32,000 nt of DNA from Desulfobulbus propionicus DSM 2032. GTDB lineage: Bacteria; Desulfobacterota; Desulfobulbia; Desulfobulbales; Desulfobulbaceae. A program made the position numbers and the translations under genes. The DNA lies in the NCBI RefSeq assembly GCF_000186885.1, contig NC_014972.1, positions 660,001-692,000 of the forward strand, in the 5' to 3' direction. A model generated the notes under the pieces. It was not told where the DNA came from. It searched no databases and saw only the letters and a list, made by a program, of their open reading frames with translations. This document shows positions 11,773 through 18,971 of this stretch, piece by piece; within the stretch, counting starts at the first letter, position 1, and every line of letters starts with the position of its first letter.

Positions 11773-11788
11773 TGGCACTTCCCATGCA
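11773..11788 (+). promoter_or_regulatory. Sigma-54 (-24/-12) promoter
   Basis: TGGCACTTCCCATGCA: perfect TGGCAC, exact GG-N10-GC spacing, and a -12 ATGCA. It lies 54 nt upstream of ATG 11842 and immediately downstream of a sigma-54 activator gene. Confidence 0.65.
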
Positions 11789-11841
11789 AACGTCCGTAGC
11801 CAAGTGGATAGGTATGTCCCCTCAGCTCCTGGACCGCCATC

Positions 11842-12780
11842 ATGGACACGACCAGCGCCGAAAACCAGAGTCCCATTCTCAAGACCTTTGACCAGCTCTT
11901 TCCCACGGAAGAGGACTGCGTTGCCTTTCTGTTTCCCTTGCGCTGGCCGCAGGGATTTGTCTGCCCCTTCTGCCGCACCCGTCATCCGCAGCTGACGCCC
12001 CGTCGCTACCCGGTCTGTCCGCACTGCGGCAACCGCAGTTCGCTGACCACCGGCACCCTGATGCACGGGGCCAAGAAACCGCTCCGGGAATGGCTGCTGA
12101 CCATCTGGTGGTTCAGCGCCCAGCCGCTGGATGTCAGCGCCAAGGAGTTGCAGCGGCTGCTGGGCACCTCCTGCTACCAGACGGCCTGGACCTGGCTGCA
12201 GAAACTGCGCCTGGCCATGGGGCGGGCCGATGACGAACGCTGCCGGGGGGTGGTGGAGATCGGCTGCGGCCTCGTGGCCCCGGCGTACGAGCGCAAGGAA
12301 CGCGCCCTGGTGCTGACCGCCGCCGAAATCGTGCTCGCCCTCGGCATCACCGGCCGTATTCGCATGCGCCACATCCCCCAGCTCGACCGCAAGCAGCTGG
12401 TGCTGTTTCTCCACGACGCGGTCCAGGTCAACAGTACCCTGCTCAGCGGCGACGCACAGCTGCTCGCCCTCCTGGACCAGGCAGGCCCCTATGCCGTGGC
12501 CCCGACGCAGCCCGATTCCTTGCTGCAGCCGTCGCGGGCCTTCGAGCTGGGTCGTAGTTTCGAGACCTGCCTGCACACCGTGCACCGCGGCGGGGTCACG
12601 GTCAAGCACCTCCAGCTCTACCTCGATGAATTCTGCTTTCGCAACAATGCCTCGCTCCTGTCCGATCACCAGGCGGTGTTCAGGGCCCTGCTCAGCGGCG
12701 TGCTGGGAAGCGCGGGGCATCCGGAGCAGGCGACCCGGCCGCTGCACGAGGCGGCGCGCCGCGGCGGGAGGCAGCCATGA
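11842..12780 (+). CDS. IS1595-family transposase homolog (zinc-ribbon plus ISXO2-like domain), apparently catalytically degenerate and without IS ends
   Basis: N-terminus FPTEEDCVAFLFPLRWPQGFVCPFC...CPHCG...TTGTLMH and C-terminus KHLQLYLDEFCFRNN are hallmark IS1595 transposase motifs. The usual VE(V/I)DET catalytic motif reads VEIGCG (12256-12270). The stop overlaps the ftsH start. Confidence 0.75.
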   Translation: MDTTSAENQSPILKTFDQLFPTEEDCVAFLFPLRWPQGFVCPFCRTRHPQLTPRRYPVCPHCGNRSSLTTGTLMHGAKKPLREWLLTIWWFSAQPLDVSAKELQRLLGTSCYQTAWTWLQKLRLAMGRADDERCRGVVEIGCGLVAPAYERKERALVLTAAEIVLALGITGRIRMRHIPQLDRKQLVLFLHDAVQVNSTLLSGDAQLLALLDQAGPYAVAPTQPDSLLQPSRAFELGRSFETCLHTVHRGGVTVKHLQLYLDEFCFRNNASLLSDHQAVFRALLSGVLGSAGHPEQATRPLHEAARRGGRQP

Positions 12781-14633
12781 GAAATCCGATCCAGCTCGGT
12801 CTGCTGCTGTTGACCGTCACCGCCATCGTCGTGTTCGGCTACAACGTCTACCTGCGCGAGACCACCCCTCCGGAGCGGGCGTACAGTCAATTTCTCGCCG
12901 AGCTCAAGGAGGGCGCTATCCGCACCGTTCATTTCAAGGGGCAGATGCTCACCGGCGAAGACAGTGCCGGCCGGCCCTTTGGAACCTTTGTCCCAGATGT
13001 CGCCGCCCTGGTTCCTCTCTTGCTCGAACGGCAGGTGGCCATCACCGGCGAGGCCGTGGCTCCGTCGGGTCTTGCCGACCTGTTCAAGTCCCTTCTGCCC
13101 GTGGTGCTCATCCTCAGCGGCTGGCTGATTTTCAGCAAGAAGTCGTTCAAGGGCGATTTCGCCGCCCGCCGAGGTTCCCGATTCACCCCGGTGAAAAGCG
13201 AGCGGGTGACCTTCGAGGATGTGGCCGGGATCACCGAGGCCAAGGAGGAGCTGCAGGAGATCGTCGAATTCCTCAAAACGCCGGAGAAATACAGCCGCCT
13301 GGGCGGCCGCATCCCCAGGGGCGTGCTTCTCCAGGGCGCGCCGGGCACCGGCAAGACGCTGCTGGCCAAGGCCATTGCCGGCGAGGCCTCGGTGGCCTTC
13401 TTTTCCATGGGCGGCTCGGATTTCGTCGAGATCTTCGCCGGAGTGGGCGCCTCGCGGGTGCGCGAACTGTTTCAGGAGGCCAAGAAGAGCGCGCCCTGCA
13501 TCATTTTCATCGATGAGATCGACGCCATCGGCGGCCGACGGACCGGGGGGCAAAGCAGCGGCGCCAGCGATGAACGCGAACAGACCCTCAATGCCCTGCT
13601 GGTGGAAATGGACGGCTTTGGTTCCGAGGACACGGTGATCATGATCGCGGCCACCAATCGGCCCGACATCCTCGATCCGGCCCTGCTTCGTCCCGGACGC
13701 TTCGACCGGCAGATCACCATCAGTCTGCCGGACGTCAAGGGACGGCTGAAGATCCTTGAGGTCCACGCCAAGAAGATCGTCACCTCGCCGGAGATCGACC
13801 TGGCGGAGATCGCCCGCTCCATTCCCGGGTTTTCCGGCGCCGAGATCGCCAACCTGGTCAACGAGGCGGCCCTGACCGCCGCCCGTCACAACAAGGCGGC
13901 GGTGGAGATGAGCGATTTCGACGAGGCCAAGGACAAAATCGTCATGGGCCTTGAGCGCAAGAACATCGCCATCAGCGAGAAGGACCGCCGCCTGACCGCC
14001 TACCACGAAGCCGGCCATGCCCTTGTCGGCCTCATGCTCGAGGAAACCGACCCGCTGCACAAAATCACCATCATCCCCCGGGGACGGGCCATGGGCGTGA
14101 CCCAGCAGGTGCCCCTGGACGACCGCCTCACCTATTCGCGCGAATACCTGCTCAACCGGATAGCCATCCTGCTCGGCGGCCGGGCCGCCGAGGCTCTGGT
14201 GTTCAATCGCCTGACCACCGGCGCCAGCAACGACATCCTGCAGGCCACGGACATTGCCGCCCGGTTGGTGTGCGAATGGGGCATGAGCCCGGCGCTGGGG
14301 CCGGTCGCCTACCAGCGGGGCAGCGACGGCTTCCTCGGCGAGAGCAGTCAGGGCAAGCCCCACAGCGAAATGAGCGCCCGTCAAATCGACCGGGAGATCA
14401 AGCGGTTGATCGACGGGTGTTACGACCAGGCGAGCGAGCTGCTGAACAAGCACAACCGGTTTCTCCATAAATTCGCCGAGGCCCTGCTGCTCAAGGAGAC
14501 CATGGATGCCGAGGACGTTGCCATTGTGTACCGCAGTTACCTGAAGGAACGGGAACTAGAACGGATATTGACCGAAAACGGAGGAAAGCATGACAGTTCC
14601 AACAATCACGAACAGATGGAGGTTCACCCATGA
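12777..14633 (+). CDS. ftsH: ATP-dependent zinc metalloprotease FtsH
   Basis: Two N-terminal TM helices, Walker [14 protein letters not shown], Walker [13 protein letters not shown] region [19 protein letters not shown], and zinc site HEAGHAL. GGGAGG RBS upstream, with ATGA overlap to the upstream gene. Confidence 0.95.
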
Positions 14634-17445: not shown

Positions 17446-17466
17446 TGACCACCTCGGAGGTCTGTC

Positions 17467-18918
17467 GTGACGTCCCGCAGACAAGGCGCTCGCCGGTGGC
17501 CATGGACCGATTGGCCGCTCAACCGGCTGTTTGCCGCCATCACCGTCTCGGTGCTGCTGTTTCTTTCGGCGGTCCTGGTTCTCGGCGTCCGCCAGTATCT
17601 GCTCTATCACCAATGCCGCCAGGCGGTGGCTGCGGGCGACCGGCTGCTGTTCCAGTTCACCGCCATCAAGGATCATCTCGACGGCTCCCTGATTGTCGGC
17701 GAGGAGGTCAATCTTCATGCCCTTGACGCGGAATTGCAGAGCCTTGAAAAAGAGGTGGGCGCATTGGCGGCCAACATCCTGGTGCCCGAGGGGCTGAAGC
17801 GGATGCTGCCCTCCCGGGTGGACCTGGTCGGTCTGGAGGTGCGGCTGCGGGCGGTGCAGGAGAACCGCCCGCAAAAGATCCGGGAAGCGGCGGAACTGGT
17901 CCGTTCCCTTGGCGGGATCAATGTCGGCTTGCAGCAGTTTCGCTTTAGCCTGAGTGATCATACGCAAATTATCCTTCTGGGCCTGCACAAGATCATTGCC
18001 GGCGCCCTGGGGCTGATCGTGGTCGTGTCCTGTTCGCTGCTGTTCGTGCTCAACCGCCGCCTGGCCGGCCCGATCCTGGCCCTGTGCAGGCTGACCGCCG
18101 CCGCTGGCCCGGACGAGGAGGATTCGAGCTGTTCCCTGCACACCCTGACCGATCGCATTCGCCAACTGCTGGACCGGGAGAGGGAACGGGAGCAATCCCC
18201 AGCGCCGGCCGCGCCGACCACCCCCGATCAGCTTCGTCTGGCCGCGCTCCGCTACCGGTACGGCGTGACGGGCTGGATCGGCACGGAACTGGCGAGCGAG
18301 CTGACCAACCGCATCAACGGGGTGATCAACTACACGCAGGCGCTGATCGATCTCAACGAGCAAGGGAAGGGGGACCGGCAGCAGATGGCTCGGGTCTGCG
18401 AGCTGCTGGCCAGCGAGGAAAAGAAGACCGCAGAACTGGTCGGAGCCCTGCAACGGATCTGTCAGTGGCAGCCCGCGCGGACATCAAGCGTCTCCCTGCG
18501 CACCCTGTTTCATCTCCTGGGCCTGATTTTCGAGAAATCGCTGCGGGCCGAATCCATTCTCCTCACCCTGCCGGCCGACTGCGATGCCGAGGCCGCGGTC
18601 GCCGCCGGCGATCTCTGGCTGGTGGCCCTGACCCTGGTGGAGCAGGGCCGCCGGATCCTGCTCGACGGCATGGCCGATCCGCCCGGGGAAAAACGGCTGC
18701 ATATCGAATGCAGGAAACAGCCAGGCGAGCGTTTTCGGCTGACACTGCTGTTCACCAACAGCGCCGGTCTGTGGGAGGCCCCCCTGGACCCAGTTTGGCC
18801 GTCGCTCTCCTTCTGCACGCATCTGTTGCAGGTGCATGACGCCTCGCTCACCCTGGAAGCCTCCGACGGCGGGACGCTCCTGCTCCTTGAACTGCCGTGC
18901 CGCGGTTCCGTGGCATAA
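17467..18918 (+). CDS. Membrane-bound degenerate histidine-kinase paralog (pseudo-kinase: H-box His replaced, ATP-binding boxes absent)
   Basis: GTG start 6 nt after GGAGG, and two TM segments. The DHp-like segment ELASELTNRINGVINYTQALIDL aligns with [26 protein letters not shown] of the kinase at 6944, with Ser (AGC 18295-18297) at the His position. No recognisable N, G1 or G2 boxes. Confidence 0.7.
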   Translation: MTSRRQGARRWPWTDWPLNRLFAAITVSVLLFLSAVLVLGVRQYLLYHQCRQAVAAGDRLLFQFTAIKDHLDGSLIVGEEVNLHALDAELQSLEKEVGALAANILVPEGLKRMLPSRVDLVGLEVRLRAVQENRPQKIREAAELVRSLGGINVGLQQFRFSLSDHTQIILLGLHKIIAGALGLIVVVSCSLLFVLNRRLAGPILALCRLTAAAGPDEEDSSCSLHTLTDRIRQLLDREREREQSPAPAAPTTPDQLRLAALRYRYGVTGWIGTELASELTNRINGVINYTQALIDLNEQGKGDRQQMARVCELLASEEKKTAELVGALQRICQWQPARTSSVSLRTLFHLLGLIFEKSLRAESILLTLPADCDAEAAVAAGDLWLVALTLVEQGRRILLDGMADPPGEKRLHIECRKQPGERFRLTLLFTNSAGLWEAPLDPVWPSLSFCTHLLQVHDASLTLEASDGGTLLLLELPCRGSVA

Positions 18919-18940
18919 CGCCGTTTTCATGAAGACGATG

Positions 18941-18971
18941 ACGCCGCACTGTGGTGCGGCGTTTGTTTATT
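18941..18971 (+). terminator. Rho-independent terminator ending the six-gene operon
   Basis: ACGCCGCAC (18941-18949) pairs with GTGCGGCGT (18954-18962) around the loop TGTG, followed by TTGTTTATT. Confidence 0.7.

Follow-up and report, generated by a model that had tools for sequence, protein, structure and literature searches.

A predicted sigma-54 regulon of the Desulfobulbales that joins a catalytically dead IS1595 transposase homolog and an FtsH protease to an Nhc/Hmc-type redox module

INTRODUCTION

What are a transposase homolog and a membrane protease doing within an operon that encodes a redox complex? The question is raised by six genes of Desulfobulbus propionicus DSM 2032 that lie at positions 11773-18971 of a 32,000-nucleotide (nt) stretch of contig NC_014972.1 (positions 660,001 to 692,000, hereafter the window, the numbering of which is used throughout). 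An earlier reading, made from the letters alone (the sequence-only reading), had proposed that sigma-54 drives these genes as one unit, which follows an operon for a kinase, a PAS protein, and an activator. Desulfobulbales matter for sulfur cycling, for sulfur disproportionation, and, by way of their cable-bacteria relatives, for long-distance electron transport, and the cluster marks an uncharacterized, tightly regulated electron-transfer module in this order.

Our answer, which we hold with slightly better than even confidence, is that the cluster belongs to a conserved two-promoter sigma-54 regulon of the Desulfobulbales, in which a redox module and a pair consisting of a dead transposase and FtsH are placed under the control of a neighboring kinase and activator. 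The parts are each familiar (an Nhc/Hmc-like complex, a sigma-54 activator, an FtsH paralog, a pseudo-kinase), while the combination was not found described: the searchable literature yielded no account of this cluster, and the one mention of FtsH there was an entry in a gene list.

RESULTS

A six-gene unit conserved across the Desulfobulbales

The six genes, all on the same strand, are as follows.

11842-12780, + strand: Despr_0623, a putatively domesticated derivative of an IS1595 transposase, with a zinc ribbon, a helix-turn-helix (HTH), and an RNase H-like fold without the catalytic Asp
12777-14633, + strand: Despr_0624, a probable FtsH paralog (AAA+ zinc metalloprotease), the start of which overlaps the preceding stop codon
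14630-15160, + strand: five-heme c-type cytochrome of 176 amino acids (aa), with five CxxCH motifs and a hydrophobic N terminus that resembles a signal peptide by eye
15198-16133, + strand: HmcB/NhcB-type Fe-S protein (NF045715, 400.9 bits versus a cutoff of 420; HybA, 202 bits; TAT_signal, Fer4_11), read from its twin-arginine translocation (Tat) start
16137-17390, + strand: HmcC/NhcC-type membrane subunit of the NrfD superfamily (NF045714, 359 bits over residues 46-413, cutoff of 550)
17467-18918, + strand: membrane pseudo-histidine kinase of 483 aa, with a helical domain set between two long membrane-type helices, a dimerization and histidine phosphotransfer (DHp) domain, and a degenerate catalytic and ATP-binding (CA) domain

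The first open reading frame (ORF) is identical (100%) to Despr_0623 of D. propionicus DSM 2032. Rereading the window verified the six sets of coordinates given earlier, together with the ATGA start/stop overlaps at 12777-12780 (transposase-like [Tnp-like]/FtsH) and 14630-14633 (FtsH/cytochrome) and the 37-, 3-, and 76-nt gaps, so that the distances from gene 1 to gene 6 run -4, -4, 37, 3, and 76 nt. GGAGG-type Shine-Dalgarno sites precede genes 2 to 6 and are lacking only before gene 1, also as first read. Window genes were scanned against Pfam and NCBIfam profiles, and bit scores are quoted beside NCBI equivalog cutoffs; Rfam at gathering thresholds and a tRNA scan gave no match anywhere in the window.

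Conservation of the gene order was examined by scanning one genome per species with a Tnp-like profile and then by tblastn with the window proteins. Five diverged homologs of the Tnp-like protein (44 to 52% identity) all stood in the same nine-gene order, and the Tnp-like and FtsH genes proved collinear in 56 loci, nearly all of which also carry the cytochrome, HmcB, and HmcC genes. These loci come from Desulfobulbus, Desulfocapsa, Desulfocapsaceae, Desulforhopalus singaporensis, and Desulfopila, with identities to the window proteins down to 33% for the Tnp-like protein and of 56 to 85% for FtsH, 64 to 90% for HmcB, and 66 to 89% for HmcC. The sequence-only reading had named the absence of a conserved order as the result that would count against a unit, and had suggested this survey; the order is conserved in 56 Desulfobulbales loci, well past what chance would give, and with it recur the promoter and tandem palindromes described below, as expected of one sigma-54-driven unit placed 3' of a kinase/PAS/activator operon.

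The relatives also include natural variants, which provide ready-made comparisons. When metagenomes were scanned with a cytochrome profile, 42 of the loci found extended far enough upstream to be assessed; 31 of these carry both the Tnp-like and FtsH genes, collinear with the cytochrome, HmcB, and HmcC genes, and 9 carry neither. One of the latter (L116) has the activator (68% identical), the sigma-54 promoter, and the cytochrome, HmcB, HmcC, and sixth genes. Locus L109 (6892-7828) has kept the promoter and has intact cytochrome, HmcB, HmcC, and sixth genes; its Tnp-like gene is absent, along with the repeat core discussed below, and its ftsH is reduced to N- and C-terminal fragments. Two others, L167 and the shorter contig L159, hold an intact ftsH without a Tnp-like gene; in L159 (417-434), ftsH has a ribosome site of its own and begins 16 nt 3' of the stop codon of the activator gene, and neither a sigma-54 promoter nor a Tnp-like gene is present, so that these parts are wired differently there. 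Loci lacking the Tnp-like gene showed no remnants of it even at an E value of 10.

Two predicted sigma-54 promoters and the palindromes near them

The regulatory elements around the cluster, and the operon upstream of it, are these.

6845-6905, + strand: CCAC-N6-GTGG-type palindromes upstream of the kinase gene (an exact match at 6847 and two degenerate copies seen by eye)
6944-8989, + strand: cytoplasmic GAF-PAS-PAS histidine kinase (Pfam GAF_2, two PAS, HisKA, HATPase_c)
9035-9805, + strand: PAS protein (Pfam PAS, E value of 3.9e-16), overlapping the next gene by 4 nt
9802-11598, + strand: receiver-PAS-AAA+-HTH sigma-54 enhancer-binding protein (Sigma54_activat, E value of 6e-67; Response_reg; HTH_8)
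11600-11650, + strand: three tandem palindromes, GCCAC-N6-GTGGY, candidate activator sites for P1
11773-11788, + strand: sigma-54 promoter P1, TGGCACTTCCCATGCA, of the form TGGCAC-N5-ATGCA
18940-18971, + strand: intrinsic terminator (hairpin at 18940-18963 with a 10-bp stem, 7 GC pairs, and a T-rich tail)
19036-19110, + strand: further CCAC-N6-GTGG palindromes, with copies at 19060 and 19090
19205-19220, + strand: sigma-54 promoter P2, TGGCATCGCGGGTGCA, just 3' of the operon terminator and preceded by two CCAC-N6-GTGG palindromes

P1 differs from TGGCAC-N5-TTGCW by one mismatch, and because four sites of this quality occur in the window against 1.47 expected, P1 is weak evidence when taken alone. 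What settles P1 is the conservation of its motif across orthologous loci: a slightly relaxed version is present in 51 of 57 orthologous regions upstream of the Tnp-like gene, which bears out the near-consensus promoter first read here. When six otherwise unalignable intergenic regions were aligned, TGGCA and TGCA were invariant at a fixed spacing, a palindrome block followed the activator stop codon, and a further 12-nt motif was also invariant; in the Desulforhopalus/Desulfopila group, the -12 element is ATGCT. P1 thus has the GG and GC elements at the correct spacing, conservation among orthologs, and an activator gene with upstream palindromes close by.

A motif refined from P1, TGGCAY-N5-RTGCA, has two copies in the window against 0.12 expected, and the second is P2, which the sequence-only reading had overlooked. 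P2-type motifs occur at the equivalent place in at least 15 loci, including the Desulforhopalus/Desulfopila group, where they stand directly after HmcC. The remaining one-mismatch sites in the window, at 23590-23605 (+ strand), 24967-24982 (- strand), and 25232-25247 (- strand), do not fit the refined motif and are probably due to chance. The terminator that had been placed after the sixth gene held up as the top-scoring candidate of the region and the only convincing one.

One type of palindrome is common to the two promoter regions and the start of the upstream operon. CCAC-N6-GTGG occurs six times in the window against 0.9 expected, and five of the six copies fall within three regulatory regions, at 6847 before the kinase gene, at 11604 and 11637 before P1, and at 19060 and 19090 ahead of P2; chance probably accounts for the remaining copy, at 31674. 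The tandem palindromes at 11600-11650 are likely to be upstream activator sites of P1, and those at 19036-19110, which recur 3' of the sixth gene in L009, L011, and L037, are likely to serve P2 in the same way. Palindromes also stand directly upstream of the kinase gene in other loci (L001, L007, L008, L010, L011, L020, L023, L037, L039, L055, and L056), which suggests that the activator also binds the control region of its own operon, although no sigma-54 motif was seen at 6845-6905, ahead of the kinase ATG at 6944. Strict CCAC-N6-GTGG is only patchy in distant loci, and in the Desulforhopalus group (L049, 9720-9760) a different long palindrome, GGAACAGAAGTGTTGCAACACTTCTGTTCC, replaces it after the activator gene; therefore, no universal activator-site motif can be defined. 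Such an exchange would be consistent with coevolution of the activator and its sites.

The candidate activator has the ESELFGH...GSFTGA loop and orthologs of 54 to 82% identity upstream of the cluster in relatives, where the kinase gene also precedes the cluster in most loci. The H box of this kinase contains AHEINN, and the PAS protein between kinase and activator has two hydrophobic N-terminal stretches that resemble membrane helices by eye.

A transposase fold without its catalytic residues

Against Pfam, Despr_0623 matches the IS1595 zinc ribbon (PF12760, E value of 9e-11), and its match to the DDE domain (PF12762) falls below the cutoff, at 21.3 versus 27 bits. The zinc-ribbon cysteines C41, C44, C59, and C62 are invariant, and the stretch YQTAW.W..K.R is common to this family and to active IS1595 members. 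Further conserved blocks of the orthologs are the HTH, SAKxLQRLL..SYQTAWTWLQKLR, and the C-terminal HRGGV..KHLQLYLDEFCFRNN; in all, 38 residues are invariant across 62 orthologs. Identity to active transposases is 39% in the N-terminal DNA-binding part versus 18% in the core, and the C-terminal 20 residues are predicted to be disordered.

IS1595 relatives for alignment were gathered by an exhaustive profile search that returned 19,114 matching cluster representatives. In four cluster orthologs aligned with these relatives, the column of the first catalytic Asp holds G or S and that of the second holds G, S, or P, while typical active-looking members have D in both; across the wider alignment of orthologs, the first column is never D. 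The loss of the first catalytic motif had been read from the DNA at the outset, and the second Asp proves to be lost as well. An AlphaFold model retains the RNase H-like fold (mean predicted local distance difference test score [pLDDT], 88.6; predicted template modeling score, 0.85), and its best structural matches by Foldseek are retroviral integrases, the ISCth4 transposase, and SETMAR (3f2k, 3k9k).

Nor does the gene look like a mobile one. It stands at one syntenic place in every locus examined, its stop codon overlaps ftsH, and there is no flanking pair of inverted repeats (IRs), only one flipped relic of 9 to 12 nt upstream. Homologs of 31 to 38% identity in other phyla have no such neighbors and carry IRs of 25 to 30 nt, and for these reasons we take them to be ordinary insertion sequences (ISs). 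Judged from its sequence and context, Despr_0623 itself has most likely been domesticated as an autoregulator that binds DNA and is paired with a probable second FtsH paralog. One or both catalytic Asp residues are likewise missing from other IS1595-like proteins (P0208-P0222, 28 to 33% identical to Despr_0623), which may represent additional domestication events that took place independently.

A probable relic of a terminal repeat near the predicted transcript start

11802-11813, + strand: core of a relic IS1595 inverted repeat, AAGTGGATAGGT (ACCTATCCACTT on the opposite strand), approximately +4 to +15 of the predicted transcript

The 12-nt motif that was invariant in the intergenic alignment has the general form AAGTGGATA(A/G)GT and occurs once per locus, 28 to 40 nt before the Tnp-like ATG. 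Of the 51 loci that have a promoter call, 39 place the motif precisely 13 nt 3' of the -12 element and three others have it at a different position in the leader, so that 42 of 51 carry it. The IRs of about 15 active IS1595 elements, derived independently from loci outside the cluster, read (G)GGG(G/C)TATCCACTT(G/T)ACGCAAGTG and precede the transposase genes by 33 to 67 nt. Their 9-nt core recurs in AC(Y)TATCCACTT, which is the operon motif read as its reverse complement. By eye, the likeness is confined to this core of 9 to 10 nt, and we estimate that a 9-mer would match somewhere in the 244-nt spacer by accident with a probability of about 0.004.

Upstream regions of 18 loci without the Tnp-like gene held no comparable match, apart from a site with one mismatch 376 nt upstream in L141. 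Set against its presence in 42 of 51 loci that have the gene and a promoter call, this absence indicates that motif and gene appear and disappear as a pair. The motif, which the sequence-only reading did not list, is a new finding and appears to be a relic of an IS1595 terminal repeat preserved beside a dead transposase gene.

A probable FtsH paralog tightly linked to the transposase-like gene

Despr_0624 scores 725 bits against TIGR01241 (cutoff of 600), with FtsH_ext, AAA, AAA_lid_3, and Peptidase_M41 domains. Walker A, the second region of homology, and HEXXH are present in 55 of 55 orthologs and Walker B is present in 54, so that the FtsH first described as complete is indeed a full-length protease with its catalytic motifs intact. 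A generic AAA match to IteA reached 120 bits against a cutoff of 510, and an anti-phage reading based on it was dropped because of this low score.

The conserved junction of the cluster is the one between the Tnp-like gene and ftsH: in 51 of 56 loci it measures between -8 and +4 nt. The ftsH-cytochrome coupling, which had also been emphasized, is not a conserved property, the distance ranging from -25 to +290 nt among relatives.

Whether this FtsH is a second paralog had been posed as a question. On the contig of one relative (L056), a second complete FtsH (18539-20356, 605 aa, 41% identical) lies 6 kb 3' of the cluster. Its clade is 76 to 99% identical across Desulfofustis, Desulfopila, and Desulfoprunum, compared with 56 to 85% for cluster FtsH, and its surroundings are variable and nonclassical (L088). 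The second clade evolves much more slowly than cluster FtsH, which supports the view that the latter is a specialized paralog. For D. propionicus itself the paralogy is indirect: a query with the second FtsH of L056 returned no D. propionicus protein among its best 120 matches.

A probable Nhc/Hmc-type module that extends beyond the terminator

Two further genes, behind P2, bear on the nature of the redox proteins.

19273-19470, + strand: small hydrophobic protein of 65 aa, the first gene of the P2 unit, with a AAGGAGGA site before its ATG; conserved in 34 loci
19506-19808, + strand: HmcD-like small hydrophobic protein of 100 aa (NF045712 HmcD, E value of 0.0025, 17.8 bits versus a cutoff of 34)

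The cytochrome was expected to be a pentaheme protein, and five CxxCH motifs are indeed found in 54 of 54 orthologs; it resembles the HmcA C terminus (E value of 3.3e-13) and nine-heme cytochrome (E value of 1.8e-11), with both scores far below equivalog cutoffs. The Tat-type, four-cluster character ascribed to the Fe-S protein likewise stands, given its TAT_signal and Fer4_11 matches, the four Cys groups and Tat motif RRRFLRG read from the sequence along with a hydrophobic C-terminal stretch, and an RRxF[LIV] motif in 41 of 52 orthologs. The HmcC-like protein has further scores of 164.6 bits for HybB and 40.3 bits for QrcD and no match to Pfam NrfD. Orthologs of the HmcD-like protein match PF28260 (DVU_0533) weakly, and their gene lies beside the cluster in 33 loci; both small genes do so in approximately 35, including a subclade in which they directly follow HmcC. 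In D. propionicus, a hairpin at 19856-19887 lies 3' of the HmcD-like gene.

The combination of a cytochrome c, a four-cluster Fe-S protein, an NrfD-like subunit, and a small subunit makes up the periplasm-facing half of Hmc. It is also the composition of NhcABCD, a cytochrome c3:quinone oxidoreductase that has no separate reductase (PMC8076601). As the D. propionicus module appears to have this published composition, with an HmcD-like subunit past the terminator, it is no orphan and its missing reductase is no anomaly; what had been taken for a module deprived of its catalytic subunit shows the ordinary Nhc/Hmc-type architecture, with one subunit behind P2. On profile and composition evidence, we assign it to the Nhc/Hmc-type cytochrome c:quinone oxidoreductases.

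Loci of the Desulfocapsa type carry a second module, of Fe-S protein, tetraheme cytochrome c7, and NrfD, immediately upstream of the kinase gene (L003, 508-4205; L005, 1007-3836; L006, 1073-4346; L007, 1031-4128). This second module looks like the 'dsrOhPh-tetrahaem' locus of cable bacteria and Desulfobulbales (PMC13047784), and it does not occur at the equivalent position in the D. propionicus window.

A sixth protein built like a histidine kinase

The sixth protein has no sequence match in Pfam, NCBIfam, or the PDB. Its AlphaFold2 model (pLDDT, 80.9) places a DHp hairpin and an alpha/beta domain behind the membrane region, and Foldseek relates it to HK853, SrrB, DivL, RetS, and ChpT at E values of about 1e-7, with probabilities of 1.00 for HK853, SrrB, and CusS. 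It aligns end to end with the core of the neighboring kinase at 24% identity over 230 aa, and this pairwise comparison shows ASELTN in place of AHEINN at the H-box position, loss of the N-box Asn, and deletion of the G2/lid region; there is no HATPase_c match. The DHp-CA fold of a histidine kinase is thus present, and the phospho-acceptor His and the N, G1, and G2 boxes are not.

The earlier label of pseudo-kinase therefore fits D. propionicus, where the fold is that of a histidine kinase and His has become Ser, and does not extend to all relatives. The H-box residue is His in 15 orthologs, Ser in 8, and Asn in 6; Desulfocapsa-type proteins keep the His, the loss of which is confined to the Desulfobulbus lineage, and the Desulforhopalus/Desulfopila group lacks the gene altogether. 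Because the H-box flanks are nearly identical in the sixth protein (...ELTNRINGVINYTQ) and the neighboring kinase, we suggest that the two share a partner. A longer version of the protein, 640 to 675 aa (L003, 15719-17746; P0191, P0196, P0201, P0202, and P0205), has an insert of approximately 180 aa between the membrane region and DHp, and there is a weak GAF_2 match in P0201, P0202, and the L003/L004 copy.

Other genes of the window

Divergent from the kinase operon, at 4912-6756 on the - strand, is a gene for a long protein in which the C-terminal 150 residues form a ZIP zinc-transporter domain and the N-terminal approximately 450 residues (approximately 500 in the longest ORF) have no family match; its start is likely near 6756 rather than 6945. 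Positions 1166-4906 (- strand) encode a 1,246-aa hybrid sensor kinase (dCache, HAMP, three PAS, HisKA, HATPase_c, receiver), and 25177-26736 (- strand) encodes a DUF4407 protein.

DISCUSSION

How the regulon may work

The favored scheme is as follows. The phosphorylated activator would bind the palindromes and fire both P1 and P2, and the products of the two transcripts would assemble an Nhc-like complex for electron transfer between menaquinone and the cytochrome pool of the periplasm. The dead transposase may still bind the relic repeat through its zinc ribbon and HTH, autoregulating P1, and FtsH could either turn over this Tnp-like regulator or act on the co-induced complex by clearing its damaged or unassembled subunits. 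The sixth protein, with a DHp domain like that of the neighboring kinase, might feed a membrane or periplasmic signal back onto phosphorylation of the activator.

Several points weigh against this account. All of its support is computational. In some loci the gap between FtsH and cytochrome genes reaches 290 nt, and an internal promoter could lie there. Compared with a normal left IR, the relic repeat has the opposite orientation and shares only 9 to 10 nt, and the Desulforhopalus/Desulfopila group retains only GGATAGG of the motif. Since L159 and L167 have an intact FtsH without the Tnp-like protein, FtsH does not strictly need that protein, and as both genes are missing from nine related clusters, the redox module works in their absence. 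Scores for HmcB, HmcC, and HmcD are all under the NCBI equivalog cutoffs, and an additional FtsH in D. propionicus itself is indicated only indirectly, through the relative L056.

Weighing the alternatives

The transposase and its repeat invite a bolder version of the same idea, in which a captured IS supplied the transposase and its own IR as a ready-made pair of transcription factor and operator at the start of a sigma-54 transcript, with the co-translated FtsH degrading the DNA-bound factor; the result would be a proteolysis-gated feedback switch setting the level of a respiratory complex. We regard this circuit as possible but doubtful. We find it unlikely that the Tnp-like protein is instead an adaptor, modulator, or substrate-delivery partner of FtsH, with FtsH acting as an assembly or repair protease for the redox complex and the leader motif playing some other part. 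FtsH degrades unassembled membrane subunits and the tails it engages are expected to be disordered, as the last 20 residues of the Tnp-like protein are predicted to be; the junction between the two genes is the tightest and most conserved of the cluster, and both are missing or decayed together in L109 and nine related clusters. An adaptor fits poorly with a protein whose most conserved part is the DNA-binding zinc ribbon/HTH shared with active transposases, with a cognate IR core that stands beside the gene and vanishes with it, and with the FtsH of L159 and L167, which has no such partner. Adaptor and autoregulator are compatible rather than mutually exclusive roles. The leader motif might also have nothing to do with an IS, its likeness to IS1595 IRs being coincidental: the reverse complement, (C)TTATCCACTT, fits the DnaA-box consensus (TTATCCACA-like) at 8 of 9 positions in many loci, and the motif lies inside the predicted transcript, where a role as a 5'-leader RNA element can be imagined. 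We consider this quite improbable, for most relics and most IRs of active elements end in ...CACTT rather than ...CACA, no Rfam family matches, a coincidental 9-mer in the spacer is improbable by the estimate above, and there is a strict association between the motif and the Tnp-like gene (42 of 51 loci versus 0 of 18).

Two further alternatives question the unit itself. The six genes may not form one operon, in which case FtsH, the redox genes, and the pseudo-kinase would have internal promoters and their adjacency would reflect co-localization at the level of a regulon only. Many relatives do have FtsH-cytochrome gaps of 47 to 290 nt, one subclade lacks the pseudo-kinase, and in L159 ftsH directly follows the activator gene with no sigma-54 promoter, and yet no extra sigma-54 motif lies in the long gaps of the relatives. 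Within D. propionicus the gaps are short, the only convincing terminator follows the sixth gene, no further sigma-54 motif is present, and sigma-70-like promoters number 0 versus 1.3 expected in 11000-19500; we judge independent transcription improbable. Least credible of all, and close to negligible in our estimation, is a chance juxtaposition in which a decaying IS remnant sits upstream of a housekeeping ftsH that happens to adjoin a redox operon. IS1595 elements are certainly abundant, as the size of the profile search attests, but the ORF is intact with its invariant residues across 62 orthologs, it keeps a single syntenic place per locus across an order, its promoter is of the sigma-54 type, and a second FtsH is present on the same contig in L056, in a clade far more uniform than cluster FtsH. 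Chance juxtaposition is already contradicted by these conservation data.

Comparison with known systems

With the two-promoter regulon as the preferred account, each part of the cluster can be set beside a system already described. The redox module is like NhcABCD and HmcABCDEF of Desulfovibrio in that it appears to join a multiheme cytochrome c, a Tat-motif 4x[4Fe-4S] protein, an NrfD-like subunit, and a small NhcD/HmcD subunit without a separate reductase. It differs from them in that its cytochrome has just five hemes in 176 aa, HmcE and HmcF are absent, the small subunits are on a separate sigma-54 transcript, and the operon also includes genes for FtsH and a dead transposase. The next-best profile matches of its Fe-S and membrane proteins, at 202 and 164.6 bits, are HybA (Tat-exported and tail-anchored) and HybB (NrfD-like) of Escherichia coli hydrogenase-2, although no hydrogenase subunits are encoded near the cluster and its partner is a cytochrome c. 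In its predicted regulation, the cluster resembles cbcBA of Geobacter sulfurreducens, an inducible inner-membrane quinone/cytochrome module with a sigma-54 promoter under the control of BccR, an adjacent receiver-type enhancer-binding protein (bioRxiv 10.1101/2021.04.15.440034). In contrast, CbcB is a di-heme b-type cytochrome rather than an NrfD/Fe-S pair, and cbcBA comes without a protease, a transposase derivative, or a pseudo-kinase.

For the transposase derivative, the closest parallel is SETMAR (Metnase), in which an RNase H-like transposase fold has likewise been kept in a protein fixed as a single-copy host gene. The transposase domain of SETMAR retains recognition of its ancestral terminal repeat. 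The cluster protein differs in being bacterial, of the IS1595 family, and without either catalytic Asp, in having a relic repeat that occurs as one copy, flipped, where a sigma-54 transcript begins, and in the translational coupling of its gene to FtsH. An order-wide joining of a dead transposase, a relic repeat, and FtsH in a respiratory operon was not found in the searchable literature, and it would give bacteria a clear example of a domesticated DDE transposase that has a candidate operator.

The sixth protein recalls DivL, RetS, and ChpT, which match its DHp-CA fold at E values of 1e-5 to 1e-6 and with which it shares the lack of the ATP-binding N, G1, and G2 motifs; it differs in belonging to a distinct sequence family, in the helical domain between its membrane-type helices, and in its place inside an operon that it may regulate. 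As for the protease, the cluster provides a genetic handle on the role of specialized FtsH paralogs in anaerobes, for which oxygenic phototrophs supply the precedent. FtsH carries out D1 turnover and repair in photosystem II, and the cluster enzyme, the catalytic motifs of which are intact, resembles the cyanobacterial and chloroplast ones as a probable extra FtsH that is tied genetically to one membrane redox complex. Unlike those enzymes, the FtsH of the Desulfobulbales cluster is tied to its complex by operon membership and sigma-54 co-induction.

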